This document shows positions 1-37,229 of a DNA stretch of 64,000 nucleotides, piece after piece; the stretch's first letter is position 1, and each line of letters opens with the position of its first letter. This stretch comes from a virus: positions 103,482 through 167,481 of IMG/VR virus record IMGVR_UViG_3300031788_000002; one strand, 5' to 3'. The position numbers and the translations under genes were made by a program. The notes below the pieces were generated by a model that was given only the letters and a program-made list of their open reading frames with translations, did no database searches and was not told where the DNA came from.

Positions 1-1
1 G

Positions 2-487
2 TACGCGGTTAGCGAAGGGGATTTCAAGCTCTCGGCCGTTAGCTGCAATATCTGGGGGGTTCATTGCGAGAACAATGCGTACACCCGGGGGCAGCTTGTA
101 CTCACCGATGGTGCGCTCATTCATCAAGGAGAGAAGCGCTGCCTGTACTGCGCGCGGCGCGGATGAAATCTCGTCGAGAAAAAGAATGGCACGTTCGTCG
201 TTGATGGCAGCGCGAATCTGGGGCAGCGCGCATTCGAGAGAGAAGCCAACGGGCGTCATAACCGGGTAGCCCCCGATGTGCTCCGGGATCTTCGTGGAGG
301 CGAAGATCGGGTAGACGTGCAAGCCCAGCATCTTTCCGATGGCGTAGATGCGCTCGCTTTTGCCAACGCCCGACCCTCCAATGGAGCATAAATTGATGCC
401 CCAATTGCCTTCTTGGAAGGGCGCCATCGGCCCTTTGGCGAGCGGCGTGGACATGCTAGCCACCAGCAAACTCTCAAAGCGATCCAT
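2..487 (-). CDS. MoxR/AAA_5-type AAA+ ATPase (C-terminus runs off the window edge)
   Basis: Not in ORF track. Manual translation from ATG 487: MDRFES...GGSGVGKS (Walker A)...ILFLDEISSAPRAVQAALLSLMNERTIG (Walker B)...RIVLAMNP (sensor 1)...FANR (Arg finger). Confidence 0.85.
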   Translation of the reverse strand, partial: MDRFESLLVASMSTPLAKGPMAPFQEGNWGINLCSIGGSGVGKSERIYAIGKMLGLHVYPIFASTKIPEHIGGYPVMTPVGFSLECALPQIRAAINDERAILFLDEISSAPRAVQAALLSLMNERTIGEYKLPPGVRIVLAMNPPDIAANGRELEIPFANRV

Positions 488-776
488 GTTGTTTTCTTTC
501 TTCGATGAATGCGACAACGTCAGGACAAAAACGAGCCGGCATGGCCGTTTTCAAGAAACTACCCCGTACAACAAGAAACCCGTCTTCATCCGCCAAGGTG
601 AAGGGCACGTAGAGTCCCCCGGGAATACGCACAGCTGTTTTGCGGTTCTCTGCTTCTTGTAAACTAGCCCTAAAAAGGGCGCGTAGCGCTTCGTCGTCGA
701 GAGCGCTAGCGGCCTGCCAGCGCTCTCGAGCACGACGAAAGGCATGCGGGTCCACGAGAACGTGGGTCAACCGCAC
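474..776 (-). CDS. hypothetical protein
   Basis: 100-aa ORF overlapping the ATPase start; AGGAG 9 nt upstream; HAFRRARERW motif. Confidence 0.6.
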   Translation of the reverse strand: MRLTHVLVDPHAFRRARERWQAASALDDEALRALFRASLQEAENRKTAVRIPGGLYVPFTLADEDGFLVVRGSFLKTAMPARFCPDVVAFIEERKQHGSL

Positions 777-2535: not shown

Positions 2536-2540
2536 CGTGA

Positions 2541-2550
2541 TTGTTATCCC
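2541..2550 (-). promoter_or_regulatory. GGnATAACA promoter-like motif (copy 1)
   Basis: Minus strand reads GGGATAACAA; the same motif precedes three other minus-strand genes at about 55.7-56.7 kb. Confidence 0.55.
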
Positions 2551-2587
2551 TGCGAAACTGCGTTTCTTGTAGGAGCGAACCTCCTCG

Positions 2588-2596
2588 CGGTACGCT
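2588..2596 (+). promoter_or_regulatory. -10-like element (cggTACGCT) 8 nt before the RNAP start
   Basis: TAnnnT hexamer; similar elements precede several plus-strand starts. Confidence 0.4.
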
Positions 2597-2604
2597 AGGC
2601 GGCC

Positions 2605-5600
2605 ATGGCCTACCTCAATCCCAAGGAAGCGTTCGCCGACTTGAAGCAGAACGTCATCGAGGGGTTGCAAGCGCACTTCCCCATCACGGGGTCAAAGCAG
2701 AGCATCCATCTCGAGGGCGTCGACGTGCGTGAGCACGCACGGGATTTCAATGATCTAACGGAGCAACACAAGGCCAAAGTCGAGGGGCGCTCCTGGACGG
2801 TACCGGTCTTTGGGGCGCTGGCTCTGAAGAACAATCAAACGGGAGAGGTCCTCGATCGAAAGAGCATTCAGCTGGCGGACTTGCCGTACATGACCCAGCG
2901 GCACGCCTACATCGTTGATGGGCGGGAATACCAGGTGGATAACCAGTGGCGCCTTAAGCCAGGCGTGTACACGCGCCGTAAAGAAGACGGGGAGCTGAAG
3001 TCTCAGTTCAACGTGCAGGGAAAGCGCCCCTTCGACATCACGTTGGATCCAGAGACCAAGGTTTTTTCCATGATACGCGGGGACTCAAAGAACATCCCCG
3101 TCTACCCCCTCATGAAAGAGCTCGGTGTCGACGACGACACGCTTCAAGCATCCTGGGGGAAAGAGGTCTTGGCGGCGAACCGAGGCGCCCGCGCAGCGGG
3201 TACGGCGCTTGAGCGCTTCTACAAAGCTGACAAGAAGCGTGCACCGACGAGCACCGAAGAAGCGCGGCAGCACTTCATCGATACGATGGAGGGTTCGAAG
3301 ATACGCCCCGAGGTGACGCAGATAACGCTTGGGAAGCCCTATGACCACGTGAACGGGAATCTATTGCACGACGTTACGACCAAGATGATTGGCGTGCAAC
3401 GCGGCGAGATTCCTGAGGATGAGCGAGACAGCCTCGTCTTCAAGGATTTGCACACGGTGGCCGACTTCGCCAAGAAGGGCCTGACCGACTGGAAGACGAA
3501 GAAAGCGCTCCAAGCGCGCACGGCACGTAAGATCAATACCGCCACCAGCATCCGCCAGGTGATTCACGGCAACATGTTCAGCAGGCCGGTTAAAGCTACA
3601 TTCACCGAGAACGCGCTGGCGCGTACGGCCGATCAGGTCAACCCCGTCGAGATGCTGACTTCGAGCTTTCAAACGACCATCATGGGGCCCGGGGGAATCC
3701 AGAGCGACAACGCCATCAGTGAGTCGGCAAAGCTCATAAACCCTAGTCAAATCGGGTTTTTGGATTCCATACATACCCCCGAAGGGTCCAAAACTGGGGT
3801 AACTTTGCACCTTCCGATGGGTGTCATTAAACGCGGGAACACGCCTCTCATCCCGGTGTACAACCTGCGCACGCAGCAGATGGACCACATTGATCCTGTG
3901 ACGTACCACAAGTCCGTGGTGATGATGCCCGACCAGGTAACGTGGAATAAGAGCACGCCCATCCCCGTGGGTAAGCGCGTGATGGTGTCGCAGAAGGGCA
4001 ACGAGCTGGTAGAGGCCGACGCTTCTTCCGCGGACTACGTGATGCGAAGCCCAAGTCAGCTTTTCAGCATGACTTCGAACTTGATTCCTTTTCTAGGAAA
4101 CAATTCAGGTAACCGCGCGAGCTACGCCACCCATCATATCGAGCAGGCGATCAGCCTGCACGATCGGGACGCTCCCCTAGTCCAATCGGGAACAGGGCGG
4201 GCGACGGGTGTGCGTACCTTTGAAGAATTCATGGGACGGCAGTCTGCCCACATCGCGCCTACGGCGGGTACGGTGACAAAGGTCACGGCCGACGCGATCA
4301 CCGTGCAGGATAAGGAGGGTAAGGACCACCACGTCACCATCTACAACAACTTTCCCCTCAATGATCCAAAGGCAGTTCTTCATAGTACGCCGGCTGTAAA
4401 GGAGGGGGATGCGGTTACACCGGGGCAGCTTCTGGCCGATAACAACTTCACGCGCAATGGTCAGTTGGCACTCGGAAAGAACTTGCTGGTCGCCTACATT
4501 CCTTTTAAGGGACACAACTTCGAAGACGGCATCGCTATTAGCCAGACCGCCGCCGCCAAAATGGCGAGTGAGCACATGCATAAGCCGTCGATTACGTTGG
4601 GGCCTGATGCCATTACGGGCCTCGCGAAGTACAAGGCGTTGCACCCAACATCCTTCGAGACGCAGCAGCTAGAACACCTGGATGACGCAGGGGTCGTACG
4701 CGTTGGTCAAACCGTGCGTACGGGCGATCCGCTGGTGGTGGCATCCCGCCCGTTTGACTCCAAGGGGTCGTACTCTCTGAGCAAGATTCGTAAGAGTCTA
4801 AGCAGTCAAACGCTGGACTCCAGCTTGACGTGGAAGAGTGAGCATCCCGGTGAAGTGGTGGGCATTCATCGAGATGAAGAGGGTAATGTCACCGTACATG
4901 TGCGCACCGTAGAGCCTATGCAAGTAGGCGATAAAATGTGTTACGACGAAGAAACGGAGATGCTTACCGCGCGCGGGTGGCTTCCAGTGGCGGATGTAAC
5001 GTGTGCCGACGAAGTCTGCTCTCGTGTTGACGGGCACATTGTTTATCAAAGTCCCGATGCGGTTTTTGCTTACCCAACCGGCGGGCGTATGTACCGCATC
5101 AAAAGCCGGCAGGTCGACTTACTCGTTACCGATAAGCACGACATGTTTGTCAAGGAGCGGGGGGCCTCCGACTTTTTGTTGACGCCGGCGGCTACGCTTT
5201 TTGGTCGTCGCATTCGCTACGCCAAGAGTGGGCTCTGGCAAGGGCATGACCCGGAGTACATTGCCTTCCCCGCTCTGTGCGTTCGTGCCGGTCAGTACGG
5301 TAACGGTTCTCGGATGTTGCCCGAAGTACGGTTGCCCGTCTCGGTGTACTGCATGCTCTTGGGGGCCTACGTGTCTAACGGGCACACGTTTGATCAGCCG
5401 GGGGACTACGGCATCGCCATTGACAAAGCAACGGGACCGCAATTCGAAGAACTGTGCCGTGCGCTAACCGAGGCGAACATCGCCTTCAGTCGTACGAACG
5501 GCGCGACCTGCTCCCGCGTTACCATCCATTCCAAGCAATGGCTTGAGCACTTTCGTGTTCTTGGGCGTGCACGCGTCAAGTACATCCCGGAGCACATCTT

Positions 5601-8600
5601 CAGTTTTTCGCGGGACAGCCTCTGCATTCTCTTTAAGTGGTTGATGTGGGGGAATAGTTCTTCAATGATGACGGGGCGTCCTGTGGCGTACTTTACCTCG
5701 TCAAAACGTCTAGCCGATGATGTTCAGCGTTTGGCTCTGCACGTGGGCTACGCCGGTAACGTCCGTATTCACGCCGAGGAAGGGTGGCAAACGATCAAAG
5801 GTAAGCCCTCGTGGTGTGCGCGTTCCTACGAGGTGCGCATCGTTACAACGAAGCTGGAGCCTCAGGTTAATAACGGCCACGTAAAGAAGCAGCGTGCTCA
5901 AGAAGAATACTTCGTCGAGAACTACACCAAGCCGGTGTACTGCGTCCGTGTTCCCGGGCACGTTGTCTACGTTCGCCGAAACGGTAAAGCTGTTTGGTCG
6001 GGCAACTCGGGGCGTCACGGGAACAAGGGGGTCATCACCACTATCCTTCCCGACAAAGAGATGCCGCACACAGCGGACGGGCGTCCAATTGAAGTCGTCT
6101 TGAATCCTAGCGGCGTTCCCGGGCGCATGAACATGGGTCAGGTCTTGGAAACGGCGGCCGGTAAGATTGCAGAGAAGACGGGGCAGACCTACATCGTCAA
6201 CAACTTCGAGCACGGTGTAGACCAACTCGATCGTGTGAAGAAGGCGCTCAAAGAACACGGGCTTACGGATACCGAAGAAGTAATTGACCCCGTGAGTGGG
6301 CAATCCCTCGGTAAAGCTTTGGTAGGTCCTCAGCACCTTCTGAAGTTGAACTTTCAAATTGATAAGAAGGTGAGCGTGCGCTCTGGTATGCCTCTTGAGG
6401 GTGCCGAACCAGAGCATTATGATGCGGACACGCTCATTCCCGCGCAAGGGGGTAAGACGGGCGGGCAGTCCATGGGTAACCTGGGATTGTACGGGATGCT
6501 CGCGCACGGTGCGAAGCACAATATCCGGGAGATGCAGACTTGGAAGAGTGAGGGTGCGGATCGAAAAGAGCGTTGGGACAGCCTTCACAATGAAGTGTGG
6601 CGTGCCATTCAAACGGGGGAAACACCACCCCCTCCGAAGAAGACCTTCGCGTTCCAAAAGTTCGAGGACATGCTGACGGCTGCGGGTATCAACGTCACGA
6701 AGCGCGGGCATACACTTCAGTTGACTCCCCTCACCAATCAACAGATTCTCGCGCAAAGCGCGGGGGCGTTACCCAATCCGGGCTACAGCGTCATTTCGAA
6801 GAAGGGTAAAGCAGGGGATGAGCCCGTCGCGCGTAAAGGCGGCGTCTTCGACCCCGCGATTACGGGAGGACATGGGGGGCAGAACTGGTCGCACATTGTT
6901 CTTCCGGAGCCCGTCCCCAACCCCGTATTCGAGCATGCGATCCAGCGTGTTCTTGGCCTTAAAGAGGGGCAGTACGCGGACATCGTTAACGGTGAGGCCG
7001 CGGTTAAGGACGGCAAGGTTGTTCCCTTGGGAACAGAGGGCTCTAAAGCGGGGGGTGCCGCCATCGCGCATATGCTGGGTGAGCTCGACGTAAAAGAGGA
7101 GCTCAAGAAAGCTAAGGACGCTCTCGACAAGCTCAAGGTACCCGCGAACCTCGCGCATCGAGATGTTACTCCAAAACTTGATCAGCTTTCGAAGCAGGTG
7201 CGCTACCTGTCCACTTTGGACAAGGCAGGGATTCATCCAAAGGACGCCTACGTTCTCGAAAACCTGCCCGTGATCCCACCCATCATGCGGCCCGCAAGTT
7301 TTTTGCCGAACGGTAACGTACACGAAGCGGATCTGAACAGCTTGTACACGCGCGCTGGGCAGCTCGCGTCCGCAATGCAATCCCCCAACTACAAGTACTT
7401 GAGCGACCATGACAAGAAGGAGGATCGCTTCAATTTGTACGACAGCGTGAAAGCGCTCATGGGGGTGGGGGAAGATTGGGCGACCCGGGGCAAGCAAGGC
7501 AAGGGAGTGCTCCTTCAAATCGCGGGCTCTGCACCCAAAGAAGGTTACTTCCAGAATACGCTCTTATCGCGTCGTCAAGACATGACCATGCGCGCCACCA
7601 TCACGCCAGATGCATCCATGGGGCTTGACCAGGTGGGCCTACCGGAAAAGAAGGCGCTCGACTTGTTCCGCCCGTTTGTAGTGAACAAGCTGCAAGAAAT
7701 CGGAGCCGCTAGTACACCACGGGAAGCGCATGCGCTTTTGTCTGAACCGGGGAAGAAAGATCCCGCGGTGTACCAGGCGCTCGATAAGGTGATGGCGGAG
7801 CGCCCCGTGCTGCTCAAGCGCGATCCGGTACTGCACAAGCACGGCGTGCAAGCTTTTTGGCCGCAGCGCGTCCCGGGGAAAGCCATTCAGATTCACCCCT
7901 TAACTACCGGGGGCTTCACGGCCGATTTCGACGGCGACACCATGGCACTCTACGTACCCATCGGGCGCGACGCTGTTGAAGAAGCCAAGGGCATGGTGCC
8001 TTCCCGAAATGTATACAACGAAGCCAGCGGCAAGGTTATTTACCAGCCGAGTCTGGAAGCCAGCCTGGGCTTGTTCAAACTCTCGCGTGTTACAGGGGAT
8101 AGCGGAAAGACATTCGACTCCCATGCCGCCTTACTCAAAGCGGCACAAGCGGGAAAGCTGACGGTGACCGAAACCGCAACGGTCGATGGGAAGCCCACGA
8201 CGGCCGGGCGTATCTTGTTGGCGTCCGCCGTTCCGGAATCGATGCAGCACGACATGTTGCACAACATGAATCTGTCCTTGAATAAAAAGGGTACGGATCG
8301 CGTGTACACGCAGATCGCCAAGGAACACAAGGCCGCTTTCGCGGATTCGGCGGTCAAGCTGATGCGCCTCGGGTACGACGCCGCCTTCGGTGTTCTCAAG
8401 ATCCCTAACCCGGCAACGCAGGGAACGGCGGCGGCTGTCGAGAAAGATGGGGAACACCCCAAGGACAACGTTCAGTACTTGCCTATGGGTACGCATTCCT
8501 TGAGCTTGAACGACTTTACGCCGGACAAGGCCACGCGGGATCCTATCGTGGCGGCTGCAACTAAAAAGGTGGAACAGATCAATGCGCGCACGGATCTTAG

Positions 8601-10152
8601 TGACGCCGAGCGAGAACAGCATGTGGTCAACACCTGGCACGATGCAACGGACCAGATGCTGAAAGAGCATGATACGAAGATGACGGCCAATCCCAATAAC
8701 CTGTACCTGATGCAGCAAGCGGGTGTGAAGCCGGGGCCTATTCAATACCGGCAGCTTCGCCTGGCCCCGATGCTCATGGTGGACAGCCAGAACCGTGTGA
8801 TTTCGACGCCGGTAACGAAGAGTTACTCCGAGGGGTTGGACGTGAGCTCCTACTGGACGCAGATGGCCGGTGCGCGCCGAGGATCAGTACTCAAAGTTCA
8901 AGAGGTGCGCGAACCGGGGTACTTTACGAAGAAGCTCATCAACGTAACGATGGGCCTACAGGTTACGAAGCATGATTGCGGTACGGATAACGGGCTGCAC
9001 TTGCCTATCCACTCCCAGGATATCTTTGACCGTACTCTGGCACAGGAACACACCATTGGGGGTGTGACGTACGCGAAGGACACGGTGATTACGCCGCAGG
9101 TAGCGTCCACAATCAAAGCCGCGGATAAGAACGCAACTTTGTTGGTCCGCTCAACATTGAAGTGCGACAACGGAACCGGCGTTTGTCAGAAGTGCGCGGG
9201 CCTGGCGCCCGATGGGCAGCATTATTCCTTGGGAACGAACGTTGGGATTTTGGCTACGCAAGCTCTTGGGGAACGCGCTACTCAGCTCACGCTCAAAGCT
9301 TTTCATGGAGGCGGTGTAGCGGAGCGTGGCGCAAACTTGGTCAACGATTTTATTCGCGTCCAGCAGTTGACGTCTCTGCCCAAGGAAATCCCGAACGCGG
9401 CGCGTTTGGCTGCGAAGGATGGTGTGGTTGAGAAAATTGAAGAAGATCCCACGGGTCACGTGGCGTGGATTGGTGGCGTCAAGCACCACATCGCCAACGA
9501 TGATCAGGGTAACCCGCTCTTCAAACCGCTCCCTGGGCAGACCGAGTCCACCTTACCCGGGGGCACGAAGTGGACGGGGTTGCAAGTCGGTATGAAGGTG
9601 CGCGCGGGAGACCCTTTGACGGATCCGGCGCGCACCTATGTCAATCCCCATGACTTGTACGCCGTCACGGGAAGTATGGCTCAAGTGCAAAACCACTTGG
9701 TGACGGAGCTGCATGACATTTACGGTCGCGAGGGCGTTCGCCGTCAGAACACGGAGACTGTGGTGCGCGCCCTTAGCGACCTGACCCGTGTCATTAACCC
9801 CGGGGATCATGAAACCATGATCAAGGGACAGTACGCGTCGCGTGCCAAAGTGCAAGAAGCCAACCGACAGCTTATAGCGCAGGGTCTTCAGCCGATTCAG
9901 CACACGCCGATTATGAAAGGTATCAGCGTGATGCCCCTTGAGGTACAAGAGGATTGGATGGCCAAGTTGAACCATGAGCGCTTGCGGGATCCAGCGCAGG
10001 GACTGCCCGCGAGTGCCGCCCTCGGGGCTTCCTCTGATCTGCACGGGAACAACCCGGTAGCAGGCATGGCTTACGGAGCCGAGTTTGGAATGACCAACGT
10101 CAACGTCTTCGACAAGCCGCACCTTAAAGACGTCGCGTCCCACGCATACTGA
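2605..10152 (+). CDS. rpoBC: DNA-directed RNA polymerase, fused beta-beta' single polypeptide, intein-containing
   Basis: Beta motifs: TPEG; LIPFL..N.GNRA; GQLALGKNLLVAY.PFKGHNFED; GDKM/SGRHGNKGV; VLNPSGVPGRMNMGQVLE; GGQSMG. Beta' motifs: LPVIPP.MRP; VLLKRDPVLH; ADFDGD (Mg2+ site, TADFDGD at 7918-7938); bridge helix GARRG...PGYFTKKL; Zn site DCGT...C...CQKC; trigger loop QALGERATQLTLKAFHGGG. Confidence 0.96.
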   Translation: MAYLNPKEAFADLKQNVIEGLQAHFPITGSKQSIHLEGVDVREHARDFNDLTEQHKAKVEGRSWTVPVFGALALKNNQTGEVLDRKSIQLADLPYMTQRHAYIVDGREYQVDNQWRLKPGVYTRRKEDGELKSQFNVQGKRPFDITLDPETKVFSMIRGDSKNIPVYPLMKELGVDDDTLQASWGKEVLAANRGARAAGTALERFYKADKKRAPTSTEEARQHFIDTMEGSKIRPEVTQITLGKPYDHVNGNLLHDVTTKMIGVQRGEIPEDERDSLVFKDLHTVADFAKKGLTDWKTKKALQARTARKINTATSIRQVIHGNMFSRPVKATFTENALARTADQVNPVEMLTSSFQTTIMGPGGIQSDNAISESAKLINPSQIGFLDSIHTPEGSKTGVTLHLPMGVIKRGNTPLIPVYNLRTQQMDHIDPVTYHKSVVMMPDQVTWNKSTPIPVGKRVMVSQKGNELVEADASSADYVMRSPSQLFSMTSNLIPFLGNNSGNRASYATHHIEQAISLHDRDAPLVQSGTGRATGVRTFEEFMGRQSAHIAPTAGTVTKVTADAITVQDKEGKDHHVTIYNNFPLNDPKAVLHSTPAVKEGDAVTPGQLLADNNFTRNGQLALGKNLLVAYIPFKGHNFEDGIAISQTAAAKMASEHMHKPSITLGPDAITGLAKYKALHPTSFETQQLEHLDDAGVVRVGQTVRTGDPLVVASRPFDSKGSYSLSKIRKSLSSQTLDSSLTWKSEHPGEVVGIHRDEEGNVTVHVRTVEPMQVGDKMCYDEETEMLTARGWLPVADVTCADEVCSRVDGHIVYQSPDAVFAYPTGGRMYRIKSRQVDLLVTDKHDMFVKERGASDFLLTPAATLFGRRIRYAKSGLWQGHDPEYIAFPALCVRAGQYGNGSRMLPEVRLPVSVYCMLLGAYVSNGHTFDQPGDYGIAIDKATGPQFEELCRALTEANIAFSRTNGATCSRVTIHSKQWLEHFRVLGRARVKYIPEHIFSFSRDSLCILFKWLMWGNSSSMMTGRPVAYFTSSKRLADDVQRLALHVGYAGNVRIHAEEGWQTIKGKPSWCARSYEVRIVTTKLEPQVNNGHVKKQRAQEEYFVENYTKPVYCVRVPGHVVYVRRNGKAVWSGNSGRHGNKGVITTILPDKEMPHTADGRPIEVVLNPSGVPGRMNMGQVLETAAGKIAEKTGQTYIVNNFEHGVDQLDRVKKALKEHGLTDTEEVIDPVSGQSLGKALVGPQHLLKLNFQIDKKVSVRSGMPLEGAEPEHYDADTLIPAQGGKTGGQSMGNLGLYGMLAHGAKHNIREMQTWKSEGADRKERWDSLHNEVWRAIQTGETPPPPKKTFAFQKFEDMLTAAGINVTKRGHTLQLTPLTNQQILAQSAGALPNPGYSVISKKGKAGDEPVARKGGVFDPAITGGHGGQNWSHIVLPEPVPNPVFEHAIQRVLGLKEGQYADIVNGEAAVKDGKVVPLGTEGSKAGGAAIAHMLGELDVKEELKKAKDALDKLKVPANLAHRDVTPKLDQLSKQVRYLSTLDKAGIHPKDAYVLENLPVIPPIMRPASFLPNGNVHEADLNSLYTRAGQLASAMQSPNYKYLSDHDKKEDRFNLYDSVKALMGVGEDWATRGKQGKGVLLQIAGSAPKEGYFQNTLLSRRQDMTMRATITPDASMGLDQVGLPEKKALDLFRPFVVNKLQEIGAASTPREAHALLSEPGKKDPAVYQALDKVMAERPVLLKRDPVLHKHGVQAFWPQRVPGKAIQIHPLTTGGFTADFDGDTMALYVPIGRDAVEEAKGMVPSRNVYNEASGKVIYQPSLEASLGLFKLSRVTGDSGKTFDSHAALLKAAQAGKLTVTETATVDGKPTTAGRILLASAVPESMQHDMLHNMNLSLNKKGTDRVYTQIAKEHKAAFADSAVKLMRLGYDAAFGVLKIPNPATQGTAAAVEKDGEHPKDNVQYLPMGTHSLSLNDFTPDKATRDPIVAAATKKVEQINARTDLSDAEREQHVVNTWHDATDQMLKEHDTKMTANPNNLYLMQQAGVKPGPIQYRQLRLAPMLMVDSQNRVISTPVTKSYSEGLDVSSYWTQMAGARRGSVLKVQEVREPGYFTKKLINVTMGLQVTKHDCGTDNGLHLPIHSQDIFDRTLAQEHTIGGVTYAKDTVITPQVASTIKAADKNATLLVRSTLKCDNGTGVCQKCAGLAPDGQHYSLGTNVGILATQALGERATQLTLKAFHGGGVAERGANLVNDFIRVQQLTSLPKEIPNAARLAAKDGVVEKIEEDPTGHVAWIGGVKHHIANDDQGNPLFKPLPGQTESTLPGGTKWTGLQVGMKVRAGDPLTDPARTYVNPHDLYAVTGSMAQVQNHLVTELHDIYGREGVRRQNTETVVRALSDLTRVINPGDHETMIKGQYASRAKVQEANRQLIAQGLQPIQHTPIMKGISVMPLEVQEDWMAKLNHERLRDPAQGLPASAALGASSDLHGNNPVAGMAYGAEFGMTNVNVFDKPHLKDVASHAY
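4939..6006 (+). mobile_element. intein (356 aa) with degenerate LAGLIDADG endonuclease domain
   Basis: Begins CYDEETEMLTARGW (block A), has VTDKHDM (block B TxxH) and ends VYCVRVPGHVVYVRRNGKAVWSGN followed by Ser+1. Removal restores GDKM-SGRHGNKG. Confidence 0.93.
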
Positions 10153-11432
10153 TGGGCCGCTACATCACCGATCCCCATACGGATGCGCGTACGCCGCTCG
10201 AGCGTACCAGCATGCGCAGTTCGTGGACGCAGCCCCACGGGGCTTCGCCCGCGTTTATTCACGAATCTCGCGTCTTAGACTTTAATTTGGCCACCTGGAC
10301 CGTCGATGTACGCTCTCAGTTTGACCAGAAGTTCTACCCGAACATTCAGGTTGCGGGCCCTTACCTTCATCCTAATCGCGGAGAAGGTTGGTCGGTTGTT
10401 CCCGAAGTGAACGCAAAGTGCGTGGTATGTTTACCCAGTGACGGGCCCCCGCCTTTTGTGCTGGCTTTCATCATGCCTATGGAGACCCCCGAGGATCCCT
10501 CCTCGAGCGCTGCGGCAGAAGACGCAGCGGATACCACAGGTACTAACCAGGGTGCGGTTTTCTCTGGAGGTCGTGCACGGGGTAAGCCCGGGGACATGAT
10601 ATGGCAAGGGCGGGACGGCAACTTCGTGATTATGCATCGCGGGGGCGTTCTCCAGGTGGGGTCGACGGAGCTCGCCCAGCGCATTTACATACCGCTCGGC
10701 AATATCATTACGGACATCAGTCAAAACTACGAGCATCACAATACTGGGGGTTCCATTAACTGGGGACTGTCCACAAGCTACACCGACGATAATCCTCAGA
10801 CCGAGTTTCGTCAGACGTTCCGGTTGTTTGCCAACGATGCCCAGGCGGATCTACGCATTGCTGTTGGGCAAGTGCATCAGCCTGTTCCAGAACCTTCGGG
10901 GGATGCAGGCGAGACCTCGAACAACACGGCGATGGGTGTAGGGGCCGACACTATCGTTGCTGAGTTCGTGATCGCACCGGCCGGCTTCAACGTGGAAGCG
11001 GGTTCGCCGGTGAGCGGCGTAGAGAACCTGACCAAGTTGAAGATGTTTTTTGACCGGTCAGGGTCTGGGTTCTTGCGCGCTGAAGCAAGCGTCAACATCC
11101 GCGTCAAAAATCAACTTCGTATTACGGCAGATCAGGGGATGACGCTGACCTCGGGTAAGTCACTGCAATTGCAGGCGACAGAAAATCTACGGTTGGTGGG
11201 AAGTACTGGGGTTCAGATTACGTCGGATAAGGGCGCGGTAACCATTAACGGAGGGGACACCCCCGTGGCCACCGTCGGCTCAGCGGTGAGCATTGTTATC
11301 GCAACGCCCGTACCTATTATCCTGAGCGCACCCGTACCGGGGACGCCAGGTGTCATCTCAGCGGGCGCGATGTTCACCGGCTTTATCACCAACGGATCCA
11401 GCACGGTGTTGGTCCCGGGGCCGCAAGGCTAA
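10152..11432 (+). CDS. baseplate spike / gpV-gp5-like protein
   Basis: N-terminal OB-fold-like segment (RVLDFNLATWTVDV...GEGWSVVPEVNAKCVV) and C-terminal short beta repeats (ITADQGMTLTSGKSLQLQATENLRLVG); TGATG overlap with RNAP. Confidence 0.65.
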   Translation: MGRYITDPHTDARTPLERTSMRSSWTQPHGASPAFIHESRVLDFNLATWTVDVRSQFDQKFYPNIQVAGPYLHPNRGEGWSVVPEVNAKCVVCLPSDGPPPFVLAFIMPMETPEDPSSSAAAEDAADTTGTNQGAVFSGGRARGKPGDMIWQGRDGNFVIMHRGGVLQVGSTELAQRIYIPLGNIITDISQNYEHHNTGGSINWGLSTSYTDDNPQTEFRQTFRLFANDAQADLRIAVGQVHQPVPEPSGDAGETSNNTAMGVGADTIVAEFVIAPAGFNVEAGSPVSGVENLTKLKMFFDRSGSGFLRAEASVNIRVKNQLRITADQGMTLTSGKSLQLQATENLRLVGSTGVQITSDKGAVTINGGDTPVATVGSAVSIVIATPVPIILSAPVPGTPGVISAGAMFTGFITNGSSTVLVPGPQG

Positions 11433-15882: not shown

Positions 15883-16147
15883 GAGCAAACTCCACGTGCT
15901 CTCTTGTGAAACGTACATGCACGGCGCGCCAGCCAAGCCCCAAAGCAACCTGTCGGATAATGGCGCGGATGGACGTGTGTAGGTCCTTGGGCAATGAGGC
16001 AATCTGAAGCTTGGCGTGGTGCTCGCGTTTCTTGTCGTCGGTATCGAGGGACCAGCCACCAGGAAAGTGAGGGCCGCCGGAGCTCAACCAGCGCCAAACT
16101 TCCTGAAGGGCCTCTTGGGGGTCGGCTGTTTCTTCTTGAGGTTCCAT
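15755..16147 (-). CDS. hypothetical protein
   Basis: 130-aa ORF filling the gap before terminase; its start shares CATG with the terminase start. Confidence 0.45.
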   Translation of the reverse strand: MEPQEETADPQEALQEVWRWLSSGGPHFPGGWSLDTDDKKREHHAKLQIASLPKDLHTSIRAIIRQVALGLGWRAVHVRFTREHVEFALKPYRVEVRQVQEAQREVFRQAARRKREGTRTNPEGGQTPAP

Positions 16148-17921
16148 GGGTAACGCAGCTTTAGCCTACGATGACGATGATCTGGACGACACGTGGGATG
16201 GGGAAGAACCCTGGACACCCGAAGTCTTACCCGAGGAAGAGCCCCTTGAAGTAACCGCGCTTCAAAAGGTTGCGCCCGTCTTACCCATGATGCGCCCGTC
16301 ACAATTCACGGCGCGGGCGTTCGTCCTACCAAAGGATGATGGAATGGGGTCAGGTCCTTTCTCTTTCAAAGGGAGACGGCATCTTCCTCGCCTTTACGAT
16401 ACGCCCGCACGCCGCGTTCTTCTATGCTGCGCACGACAAGTTGAAAAGTCGACAGCGTTAGGTAACCGCGCGCTGTGTTACTCAGCGCTCGTTCCTTCCA
16501 TCCGCATTCTATACGTGAGCCCCTCGGGGTCGCAGACCAAAAACTTCTCACGGGATCGTATTAAGGAGCCTATCGAGACCAGCGAGCTTTTGCGCCAATT
16601 CACGACGCGCATGCTGTCGCAAAACGTCTTCGATAAGCAGTTCATCAACCGGTCGATGATCACGATGCGCTACGCGTATCTGAATGCAGACCGCGCCCGC
16701 GGTATCCCCGCCTGGCAGCTTTACTTGGATGAGATCCAGGATATTTTGCGCAGTTGCATCCCTGTTCTTGAGCAGTGCACGTCCCACGCACCCGATCGAT
16801 GGAAGAGCTTTGTGTACGCCGGTACACCGAAGAGCCTCGACAACGTAATCGAGGAATACCGGGCCAATAAAAGCACGCAGGGGGAGTGGGTTGTTCCTTG
16901 CGAAGGGTGTAACACGTGGAACGTCCTCGGCGAGAAGAACATTGGTAAGAAGGGGCCCATTTGTAGCAAGTGCGGTAAGGCGATTGACCCGCAAGGAGAG
17001 CGCGCCCAGTGGGCCTGGATGGTTACGCCGGATGAAGAGCGTATCCATGTTCCCTTTGAGAGCTACCGCATTTCGCAGTTGATGGTGCCTTGGAAGATTC
17101 GAAACTGGCACGAAGTTCTGCACGACTACGTTAACCATCCCCGCGCGCAGTTCATGAACGAATGCCTCGGCATTTCGTTTGAGTCGGGGACCCGGCCGCT
17201 AAATCAAGCGCAGCTTCGCGTGCAGTGCGGTACGCACTCCATGAGCGAGCTTGAATCCTTGCGGCATCGCTCCTTGGCGGAGCCTTTTTTCTTTGGCGTG
17301 GATTGGGGGTCTGGGGATAGCGCTTACACAGTTCTGACCATCGCGACGTACGTGAACGATCGCTTTCGGGTGATCTTCATGCACCGCTTCGTCGGCGAGG
17401 ATGCGGACCCCGACGTTCAGGTTAAGAAGATTATCGAGATGGGGCATCACTTCAACGTGGCCACCATCGGTGCCGACCGTGGGTATGGCTTTGGTATGAA
17501 CAGCCGCCTTGTACGCGCTTTTGGTAACAAACGCGTTCATCAATTTCAGCACTTGGGCAAGCTTACGAAGAAGGTGATCTTCGATCCCAAGTTGATGTAC
17601 TGGAAGATGCACCGCACCGCGGTGATGAGCGATATCTTCGAGGCTATTAAAAAAGGCAAGGCGGAGTTTCCCCGATGGGATGAGTTCAAGAAGCCTTATG
17701 CCGAAGACTTCACGAGCATCTACAGTGAGTACAACGAACGCCTACGAATGATCCAATACGACCATAAGCGTGGGAGCCCTGACGATTCATTTCATTCGTT
17801 TATGTACGCGTGGCTTTCCTCTATGATCATGATCCCACGCCCGGACATCATTGCGCCGTCGCAGGAAAGCGAAGACGGTAAAGTGCTATCGCCTTACACG
17901 GGCCCCGTTTATCAGGGCTAA
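16146..17921 (+). CDS. terL: terminase large subunit (GpA-like)
   Basis: Walker A-like ARQVEKST, Walker B LYLDEIQD, coupling motif AGTP, Zn CEGC/CSKC, RNase H-like FFGVDWG and PDDSFHS. Confidence 0.88.
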   Translation: MGNAALAYDDDDLDDTWDGEEPWTPEVLPEEEPLEVTALQKVAPVLPMMRPSQFTARAFVLPKDDGMGSGPFSFKGRRHLPRLYDTPARRVLLCCARQVEKSTALGNRALCYSALVPSIRILYVSPSGSQTKNFSRDRIKEPIETSELLRQFTTRMLSQNVFDKQFINRSMITMRYAYLNADRARGIPAWQLYLDEIQDILRSCIPVLEQCTSHAPDRWKSFVYAGTPKSLDNVIEEYRANKSTQGEWVVPCEGCNTWNVLGEKNIGKKGPICSKCGKAIDPQGERAQWAWMVTPDEERIHVPFESYRISQLMVPWKIRNWHEVLHDYVNHPRAQFMNECLGISFESGTRPLNQAQLRVQCGTHSMSELESLRHRSLAEPFFFGVDWGSGDSAYTVLTIATYVNDRFRVIFMHRFVGEDADPDVQVKKIIEMGHHFNVATIGADRGYGFGMNSRLVRAFGNKRVHQFQHLGKLTKKVIFDPKLMYWKMHRTAVMSDIFEAIKKGKAEFPRWDEFKKPYAEDFTSIYSEYNERLRMIQYDHKRGSPDDSFHSFMYAWLSSMIMIPRPDIIAPSQESEDGKVLSPYTGPVYQG

Positions 17922-25862: not shown

Positions 25863-26984
25863 ATGGCATCGGCACGGCAAGTCAACGATCTGTTCAACAC
25901 ACGCCTCGGCGAACCCGGGGGCAAAGAAAAGCTCGCCCAGTTTGGCGGCTCTTACATTCGCGATCGTCTTCGCGAGGTTTCGTTCGTTCGCAAGATCGTG
26001 CCCCCGGAGCAGGTTACGCGTACGGACTGCCAGCGTTCAACGCGGCATGACACGCTGGTCAAGATCGTCGACATCGAGCCCAAGAGCCGGGCCATGGCGA
26101 TCAGCTTCCGGGGACAGCCCACGGCCCGGTTTATCCGGGGTGAGCGCGCCGAGGTAGCTTTCTTCACGATCAGCTCGGAGGTCTTTCAGAAGACCGAACA
26201 AGAGCTACTAGCGTATGAGATGCCCATCACCAAGATCATCGAGGAGAATTCGGTGAAGGACATCCAGGAGATCGAGGATCGCGAGTTCGTCATCCATATC
26301 GAAGCCGCGGTTCAGGCGCTTCAGCAGGAAGCCAACGGTGGAACGATCGTGTCGTTGAACGCTTCAGCTCTTCAAGGCAGTGCGCCTCCGGTCGAGTTCT
26401 CGGTTCGTAAGGGGGAGCTTGCGCGCGCCGCCAATACGAACGACGCGGTAATCCGCCCGGTTCAGCGCAAGGACATCGTGGAGGGCTTCAAGATCATCGA
26501 CGGAAGACGCCTGCGGTGCGCACGCTTCCTTCTGACCGAAACTGACTTCGACGATGTCCTGTCCTGGACCGTGGAAGACACCGGCGATCGGATTCAGTCG
26601 GAGACCACCGTCGACGGGTACAAGTACAATTTGCTCGTGGGCCGCCCGTACATCCGGACTGTGAAGACCGACATCCTGCGCCGTGGGAACATCTACTTCT
26701 TCGCGGAACCCGAGTTCTTCGGGAAGTTCTACGTGCTTAACCAGACCAAGTTCTACATCGACAAGGTCGCCAACACGATCACCTTCCAGGCATGGGAGGA
26801 CATCGCGATGGCGGTCATCAACATCGCCAGCGTTGGCAAGATCGAGCTCTACTCGGCGGACGCTACGGCCAACGATGAGGACACGCTGCTCGACAACTTC
26901 ATTCCGGTGGCTGAGGATAGCCTTGGCGCCATCAACAACCGCGTGAACGAAGGGCTCAAATTCCCCCAGATCGTCGCCAATTAA
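25863..26984 (+). CDS. major capsid protein (HK97 fold)
   Basis: AAAGGAG SD, strongly C/G-ending codons, 373 aa, YIRDRLREVSFVRKIVPP motif, position after protease/scaffold, strong terminator downstream. Confidence 0.82.
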   Translation: MASARQVNDLFNTRLGEPGGKEKLAQFGGSYIRDRLREVSFVRKIVPPEQVTRTDCQRSTRHDTLVKIVDIEPKSRAMAISFRGQPTARFIRGERAEVAFFTISSEVFQKTEQELLAYEMPITKIIEENSVKDIQEIEDREFVIHIEAAVQALQQEANGGTIVSLNASALQGSAPPVEFSVRKGELARAANTNDAVIRPVQRKDIVEGFKIIDGRRLRCARFLLTETDFDDVLSWTVEDTGDRIQSETTVDGYKYNLLVGRPYIRTVKTDILRRGNIYFFAEPEFFGKFYVLNQTKFYIDKVANTITFQAWEDIAMAVINIASVGKIELYSADATANDEDTLLDNFIPVAEDSLGAINNRVNEGLKFPQIVAN

Positions 26985-37170: not shown

Positions 37171-37229
37171 ATGCGGCGCGTGCTCGATGCGCCGCATAAG
37201 AGGAGCCCCACCCCGGGCTCCTCTTCTTT
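37171..37229 (+). terminator. double hairpin/terminator after sheath
   Basis: ATGCGGCGCGT/ATGCGCCGCAT stem, then AAGAGGAGCCC/GGGCTCCTCTT stem followed by CTTT. Confidence 0.7.

Follow-up and report, generated by a model that had tools for sequence, protein, structure and literature searches.

We analysed a 64,000-nt stretch of phage DNA (IMG/VR record IMGVR_UViG_3300031788_000002, positions 103,482 to 167,481), hereafter called the window; coordinates refer to the window unless preceded by ‘G000’, which denotes positions in the complete 167,481-bp record. The window contains a gene for a single-chain RNA polymerase (RNAP) in which a beta half is followed, in the same reading frame, by a beta-prime half, and the same genome encodes a sigma70-family factor. 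The best reading of the gene, from its conserved residues and a structure model, is that it encodes an active DNA-dependent two-barrel RNAP with beta and beta-prime in one chain. We consider it likely that this enzyme, together with the phage sigma factor, constitutes a two-protein holoenzyme without alpha that is packaged in the virion and serves early transcription. A more far-reaching version is tentative, and we rate it slightly below an even chance: that a complete sigma70-dependent machine would consist of two polypeptides, an alpha- and omega-free bacterial-like core with its own sigma, that is injected from the virion and uses one promoter across a large undescribed lineage outside all cellular RNAPs.

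A single-chain beta-beta-prime RNA polymerase

The original prediction had described an open frame at 2605-10152 with beta motifs followed by beta-prime motifs, a junction near 6696-6714 and a mature length of 2159 amino acids, and all of these points were borne out. Pfam domains lie along the frame in the cellular order (Rpb2_3 and Rpb2_6, then Rpb1_1, Rpb1_2 and Rpb1_5), the junction motifs lie at residues 1359, 1365 and 1370 (nt 6679, 6697 and 6712), and the mature length follows from the precursor once the intein that we located within it is removed (Table 1). The NCBIfam models for rpoB, rpoC and fused rpoBC match the frame, all below their own cut-offs, with both halves matched by the rpoB and rpoC models.

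A structure model was made on the core of P0002, an intein-less homologue that is 84% identical to the phage RNAP. This AlphaFold2 (AF2) model, with a predicted local distance difference test (pLDDT) score of 86 and a predicted template modelling (pTM) score of 0.80, has a bacterial-like fold with a clamp, bridge helix and trigger loop of the cellular type and a hairpin at the fusion junction. All 50 matches listed in a Foldseek search of the model against the PDB are bacterial beta-prime chains, with a match to bacterial beta-prime at E 1e-44.

A query spanning the junction returned 1169 proteins among 8000 scored, and all 120 matches listed cross the beta/beta-prime junction as a single chain, most of them about 2150 amino acids long. 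Because all listed homologues do so, the fusion is no assembly artefact; it is, to judge from these sequences, a trait of the whole RNAP family. Among 75 viral loci, about 51 encode a full-length single chain, and in 12 the chain with beta stops after the first two thirds of beta-prime, the remainder of which has its own gene. Other copies end at contig edges or carry in-frame stops, and a clean split at the beta/beta-prime boundary was found in none of the 75. Two loci (L054 and L079) have in-frame stops but no frameshift in the RNAP, a pattern that stop-codon recoding in these phages would produce.

Conserved, lost and altered parts

The catalytic DFDGD triad is invariant in the family (Table 1), and so are, among the same 68 sequences, the equivalents of E. 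coli K1065 and K1073 (the beta-barrel lysines Lys777 and Lys1141), R425 and Q929, with H936 present in 67; the phage RNAP keeps both of the trigger-loop residues, Q929 and H936. The Asn ahead of the triad (E. coli N458) is a Thr in the phage, which reads TADFDGD, and is Asn in 48 of the 68 relatives. Phe takes the place of H1237 and a near-invariant Pro that of beta G1215, and divergence is also seen in the C-terminal tail of beta-prime.

The enzyme shares with the bacterial RNAP holoenzyme its fold, catalytic residues, flap, clamp helices, second zinc site (Zn2) and a sigma70-type initiation geometry, but is about 350-700 amino acids shorter, lacks the N-terminal zinc-binding domain of beta-prime, has no accompanying alpha or omega gene and has an altered rifampicin pocket. 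In that pocket six main positions differ from E. coli, namely those of cluster I given in Table 1 and I572 farther along, and insensitivity to rifampicin is therefore predicted.

Phylogenetic position of the family

Trees were built from 754 confidently aligned columns with FastTree and with IQ-TREE (LG+C20 with posterior mean site frequencies (PMSF), quick search), with support from the Shimodaira-Hasegawa-like approximate likelihood ratio test (SH-aLRT). The alignment is based on hidden Markov models seeded on the RNAP family and may favour it, long branches are present, 23 rows were dropped and the root rests on two archaea only. In these trees, support is 99 for Bacteria, 100 for the mReC phages, 99 for the core fused family and 99 for one clade of all viral enzymes; in this last clade, a long branch close to the fused family bears YerA41 and Carin-5. 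The mReC clade includes two contigs (L091 and L216) matched to members reported in PMC7481178. The beta half and the beta-prime half, for which the original prediction had proposed phylogenies, each recover the same family clade. Approximately unbiased (AU) tests reject a grouping of the family with its closest-scoring bacteria, the Patescibacteria (p 0.0005), which is the single bacterial phylum individually tested, and also reject nesting with one mReC subclade (p 1e-6).

A lineage outside Bacteria, and beside rather than within mReC, is supported by these comparisons. The compact enzyme of a distinct lineage that the original prediction proposed fits this placement, and the enzyme does not nest within a cellular clade, as Bacteria lie on one side of a branch with support of 99. 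Its description as close to the bacterial pattern holds for the architecture, with 34-39% identity to bacterial enzymes in core columns, but there is no sign of a recent capture from a bacterium. A captured host rpoBC was ruled out by the position outside Bacteria and by the absence of the zinc-binding domain from all 68 family sequences, and membership of mReC was ruled out since the mReC clade excludes the family, the genes are fused and the capsid and terminase families differ. The fused listed homologues, the trees and AU tests, and the level of core identity to bacteria leave a negligible probability to an artefact of sequencing or assembly, or to a recent capture of host genes.

Cultured phages belong to the same clade (SH-aLRT 99): Salmonella phage Arash (Gp206 and Gp216; OQ632216) and Vibrio phages D69, D148 and D181. 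The original prediction had overlooked these relatives, which share the fusion, as well as the phage sigma factor, its promoter and mReC as the closest described lineage. The Arash/D69 type has in common with the phage studied here the beta/beta-prime fusion, the lost zinc domain, a Gp10-type sigma factor and the GGNATAAS promoter class; Arash also shares its terminase, portal and capsid, and the RNAPs are about 31% identical. In the Arash type, however, a break in beta-prime follows the catalytic barrel (1525 + 606 amino acids), whereas beta-prime of the phage is continuous, and Arash has a second sigma factor, Gp196, without a counterpart in the phage, and a helicase gene that adjoins its RNAP. 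In the passages of the Arash report that were consulted (PMC10585845), the proteins are named beta and beta-prime and the fusion is not mentioned. As the Arash-type split copies form one nested clade (97) and the deepest family members are single-chain, the single chain looks ancestral and the split derived. The Arash split site (L009) lies close to the cyanobacterial rpoC1/rpoC2 break (L201) and to the YerA41 split (L200), which is probably convergent.

Like the present family, mReC enzymes (PMC7481178) are phage-encoded, can be aligned to COG0085 and COG0086 and branch deeply outside the cellular clades, as neighbours of the family in the viral clade (99). They differ in having separate beta and beta-prime genes in the rows listed in parts 9-10 of Supplementary Data 2 of that study. 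In the mReC loci that we fetched, beta-prime precedes beta, identity in core columns is 30-33% and many copies keep the N-terminal cysteines. The mReC phages are defined by a PF07068/VOG11186 capsid and a PF03237/VOG01069 terminase, whereas the phage has a phrog_2522 capsid without a Pfam match and a terminase whose best Pfam match is PF05876. The mReC mark NADxDGD reads TADFDGD in the phage, and its Asn is present in 48 of 68 relatives.

The fused RpoBC proteins of cells (Helicobacter, Wolbachia and Dependentiae) represent an independent fusion. We observed such cellular fusions in a Vermiphilus (Dependentiae) metagenome-assembled genome (MAG) and similar 2510-residue copies, in one Paceibacterota MAG and in two Pseudomonadota MAGs (L117, L121, L125, L130, L149, L132, L107 and L111); those tested, among them L107, L117 and L132, group with Bacteria. 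One further IMG/VR contig (L276) has bacterial rpoB and rpoC as two ordinary genes, falls with Staphylococcus in the tree and is probably host DNA.

A phage sigma factor

The original prediction recognised no alpha, omega or sigma gene. This holds for the window, but the search of the remaining contig that it had suggested, while yielding no alpha gene, found a sigma70-family gene with regions 2, 3 and 4 at G000:7339-8151. Orthologues are present in 12 of 13 near-complete virus records of the family, in Arash (Gp10) and in Vibrio phage D69. A profile of this sigma family matches solved sigma70 proteins across regions 2-4 (E 1e-20), with individual sequences falling below curated cut-offs, and a model of the phage protein (pLDDT 86) has structural matches to the sigma fold. 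A second sigma factor like Arash Gp196 was sought in G000 and not found; the genome has a single RNAP and a single sigma factor. The family profile did not pick up a weak Sigma70_r4 match at G000:82977.

In a complex prediction, a clamp fragment of the phage RNAP and the phage sigma factor scored 0.77 (best control, 0.01), passing a mark that 58 of 80 pairs from solved complexes also pass, against 2 of 110 mismatched ones. Contact agreement between runs was at least 39%, the pLDDT of the partners at least 73, and the predicted interface joins the clamp helices to sigma region 2. Because clamp and sigma are a textbook pair, this pass may stem from likeness to solved holoenzymes, and shows likeness rather than binding. 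The phage RNAP and sigma factor would very probably form a two-protein holoenzyme. The sigma factor might instead redirect the host core RNAP, as in SPO1- and T4-like phages, with the fused enzyme initiating in some other way. The complex prediction is blind to the difference between phage core and host core, and many RNAP-less phages encode sigma factors that act on the host core (PMC7598289). We hold this to be very improbable, since sigma and RNAP co-occur in the family and are both found in Arash particles (PMC10585845), the promoter described below is common to five phages, which range from 49 to 60% G+C and include a phage of Salmonella, and the enzyme retains both of the main surfaces on which sigma docks, the flap and the clamp helices.

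Promoters and terminators

A promoter of the form CAA (-33 to -31), GG-N-ATAA-S (-14 to -7) and YG (+1) recurs in five genomes of the family, mainly before non-structural genes. Words of the type GG-N-ATAA are the top or among the top enriched upstream words in G000 and four relatives, of which Arash is one. In aligned sites CAA lies 17-19 nt upstream and TG 13-14 nt downstream; both are absent from intragenic controls (Fisher p 1e-15 for CAA and 3e-10 for the +1 position). When a matrix from the four relatives is applied to G000, 18 of its 25 top sites are intergenic, against 13% intergenic DNA in that genome, and in Arash 24 of the 25 top sites are on the non-structural strand. The geometry is sigma70-like, with A at -11, but departs from the host consensus in leaving position -12 free and having C or G at -7. 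It resembles that of FliA-type promoters. We think it probable that the proposed holoenzyme would read these promoters before mainly non-structural genes.

At the RNAP gene, the predicted promoter of this class faces away from the gene (Table 1), and in the family the core motif lies antisense upstream of 20 of 54 RNAP genes and sense upstream of none. A predicted host sigma70-type promoter faces the gene, and its TTG consists of the same three bases as the CAA of the phage promoter; with only 8 nt from TACGCT to the ATG, the RNAP transcript would be near-leaderless. The pattern TGnTAnnnT occurs 5-12 nt before 6 of 87 unit starts (0.4 expected), and TAnnnT and TGnTAnnnT are enriched just before unit starts without the phage motif, several of them structural, in G000 and one relative (G019). 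Structural genes, that of the RNAP included, may be read from host sigma70-type promoters, probably by the host RNAP, a step to which we give slightly better than even chances. Two other elements were ruled out: CTAA as a -35 element, since its spacing is not fixed, and TTTAGCC as a promoter, since it is a terminator tail. Several hairpins resembling intrinsic terminators share this TTTAGCC tail (at 37227, 37411 and 54964, and at sites outside the window), which is a possible terminator signature of the phage enzyme.

Possible alpha independence and packaging

Alpha independence of the enzyme is plausible from gene content, as there is no alpha or omega gene in G000 (14 of 14 control genomes were positive), a genome that is apparently closed, and no alpha gene in 15 family genomes; host alpha could be borrowed. 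The argument rests on these absent genes, on the covalent junction and on the precedent of jumbo phages, whose RNAPs assemble without alpha (PMC7598289). The junction would likely stand in for the alpha-dimer assembly platform, making alpha and omega dispensable.

The RNAP and sigma factor would, we judge with fair assurance, be made late, packed in the head and injected to drive early transcription. Packaging is supported most directly by data on Arash, and the phage itself offers indirect hints. In the Arash report (PMC10585845), Gp206 is the most-detected protein of the particles (3516 spectra), above the capsid protein, with 1210 spectra for Gp216 and 467 for the sigma factor Gp10. In the window, the ATG of a baseplate spike gene overlaps the RNAP stop codon, which places the RNAP in a structural, late operon. 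There is no sense phage promoter at the RNAP gene. Finally, the capsid protein (25863-25940) has a K-x-A at its N terminus, and a similar one is present in the phage sigma factor (G000:7339-7400) and in about eight of its close orthologues. This is a possible packaging or protease leader, which distant orthologues of the sigma factor lack.

Several observations weigh against the proposed virion-packaged, alpha-less holoenzyme. In the core itself, the N458T and H1237F changes deviate from the cellular consensus, and some conservation persists in beta region H, an alpha-contacting region of the bacterial enzyme. The latter, together with a fold close to that of bacterial RNAP, would suit a hybrid core in which the single chain works only with host alpha, and perhaps omega. 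Cellular fused beta-beta-prime enzymes do still use alpha. We nonetheless consider such a hybrid unlikely: beta G1215 and the beta-prime tail, putative contacts with alpha and omega, are altered (a literature search on the alpha-assembly residues D1084 and G1215 gave no match), family hosts seem diverse, so that no single alpha co-evolves with the enzyme, and the jumbo-phage RNAPs are alpha-free (PMC7598289).

Other adverse observations concern timing and delivery. The RNAP has no N-terminal K-x-A leader, and the sigma gene itself carries a phage-type motif upstream (GGCATAAC), though a low-scoring one. Arash, the source of the particle data, is only about 31% identical in its RNAP, and its authors allow that abundant enzymes may carry over into purified particles (PMC10585845). 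The promoter motif alone is weakly enriched in G000 (8 of 95, with a shuffle maximum of 7), and the host-type late promoter signal is seen in G000 and G019 but not in the more distant phages Arash, G018 and G010. Carry-over, the motif at the sigma gene and the presence of one RNAP and one sigma factor only could also be read as a non-virion RNAP that is made after infection and reads middle or late genes with the phage sigma factor, host RNAP having begun the infection. That reading we find improbable, though about as credible as the hybrid core, because the phage-type promoters stand before mainly non-structural genes and face away from the RNAP gene, which itself lies inside the structural operon, and because of the rank of Gp206 in the Arash spectra.

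Comparison with other phage polymerases

The virion polymerases of N4 and crAss phi14:2 follow a logic similar to that of the packaged holoenzyme proposed here, from which they differ in that the latter has a bacterial-like core and a true sigma factor. Both N4 virion RNAP and crAss phi14:2 gp66 are reportedly single-chain early polymerases delivered by the virion, and N4 virion RNAP has a T7-type fold. None of the crAss phi14:2, P23-45 and N4 enzymes is known to use a sigma70 factor. P23-45 gp64/gp96 is likewise a single-chain, virion-delivered early polymerase (bioRxiv 10.1101/2022.12.01.518664), and crAss RNAPs have no detectable match to COG0085 or COG0086 (PMC7481178). The virion and non-virion RNAPs of phiKZ and AR9 are also two-barrel enzymes without alpha and omega, one set being packaged for early genes, but they consist of four or five chains, are far more diverged, come in two sets and have a sigma-like subunit that is unrecognisable by sequence (PMC7598289); they are absent among the 40 phage matches listed.

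Inteins

The intein of the RNAP was identified from its termini, from matches to the intein stretches of the NCBIfam DnaB, GyrA and PolD models and from allelic copies that occupy its site in P0006 and P0111 (54-56% identity); it has no Pfam and no PDB match. As it sits between Lys777 and Lys1141, splicing would be needed to rebuild the active site and hence for activity. Family RNAPs bear inteins at at least six sites (P0008, P0020, P0098, P0013, P0017 and P0019). Several lie in the catalytic loop, apparently ending in Trp-Asp before Thr, and in three catalytic-loop inteins an Asn precedes the intein Cys where the third catalytic Asp is expected, so that plain splicing would give DFDGN unless the Asp comes some other way. 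The portal gene (G000:97686-101084, equal to L008:11687-15085) has a LAGLIDADG insertion that is unrelated in sequence to the RNAP intein.

Table 1. Features of the window that bear on the RNA polymerase and its context.
Feature	Position	Strand	Remarks
Phage-type promoter (predicted)	2536..2569	-	CAA 2569-2567, GGGATAAC 2550-2543, +1 2536; faces away from RNAP gene
Host sigma70-type promoter of RNAP gene (predicted)	2567..2596	+	TTGTAG, 18 nt, TACGCT, 8 nt to ATG
Single-chain beta-beta-prime two-barrel RNAP gene	2605..10152	+	One frame; precursor 2515 aa, 2159 aa once intein removed
Beta half, intein included	2605..6696	+	aa 1-1364; flap retained
Rifampicin-pocket cluster I equivalent	3613..3687	+	Differs from E. 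coli at Q513, H526, R529, S531, L533
LAGLIDADG-type intein	4939..6006	+	aa 779-1134, 356 aa; Cys1 to Asn356, +1 Ser
Fusion junction	6688..6729	+	Final strand of beta and opening strand of beta-prime joined as a hairpin by a two-residue turn (AF2 model of P0002, pLDDT 85-93)
Beta-prime half	6697..10152	+	aa 1365-2515
Deletion site of beta-prime N-terminal four-Cys zinc-binding domain	6865..6879	+	Domain absent in 68/68 family sequences
Clamp helices	7351..7446	+	aa 1583-1614; predicted docking site for region 2 of phage sigma
Catalytic DFDGD triad	7924..7938	+	aa 1774-1778 (D1774, D1776, D1778); invariant in 68/68 family sequences
Second zinc site	8977..9195	+	Cys2125, 2187, 2194 and 2197 retained
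Baseplate spike (gp5/gpV-like) gene	10152..11432	+	ATG overlaps RNAP stop
Terminase large subunit	16146..17921	+	phrog_675; Arash gp1 orthologue; best Pfam PF05876
Major capsid protein	25863..26984	+	phrog_2522; Arash gp226 orthologue (E 1e-32); no Pfam match

Genomic context

The phage is tailed: its terminase, capsid, portal and baseplate genes have homologues in Arash. G000 also has replication genes for PolA, primase, DnaB and ligase; no tRNA genes were found in the genome. IMG/VR classes the record as linear and 89% complete. We regard the genome as effectively closed because its first 127 bp are repeated near the record’s end and because the genes flanking the join adjoin in two relatives. 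Contigs of the family that are found in MAGs fall in unrelated bins and are probably misbinned.

Upstream of the RNAP gene, on the opposite strand, are a MoxR-like AAA ATPase gene and a VWA/metallopeptidase gene (window 1-517, G000:101459-103968), which are kept in relatives; the divergent phage promoter lies upstream of them. Seven intergenic sites (window ~42549, 45415, 45979 and 63381; G000:30705, 43141 and 82613) carry the palindrome GTGC-N5-GCAC. This is the strongest spaced-word signal in the genome, and could be an operator or a hairpin.

Implications

Polymerases carried in virions, cores without alpha and fused RpoBC are already known individually. The fusion in this family, the lineage and its promoter are apparently undescribed, as no paper on any of them was found in a search that reached few of the subscription papers. 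With this family, the RNAP tree gains a deep and widespread branch next to mReC. Assembly of cellular RNAPs depends on an alpha-type platform, and those phage enzymes without alpha that have been studied so far are either fragmented or too diverged for a recognisable sigma70 factor. If the proposal is true, a natural one-chain core with its sigma factor would reveal what alpha, omega and the zinc domain are for, and would offer a simple model of initiation and possibly a two-gene orthogonal transcription system. The cultured phage Arash and the predicted promoter make the idea testable now.

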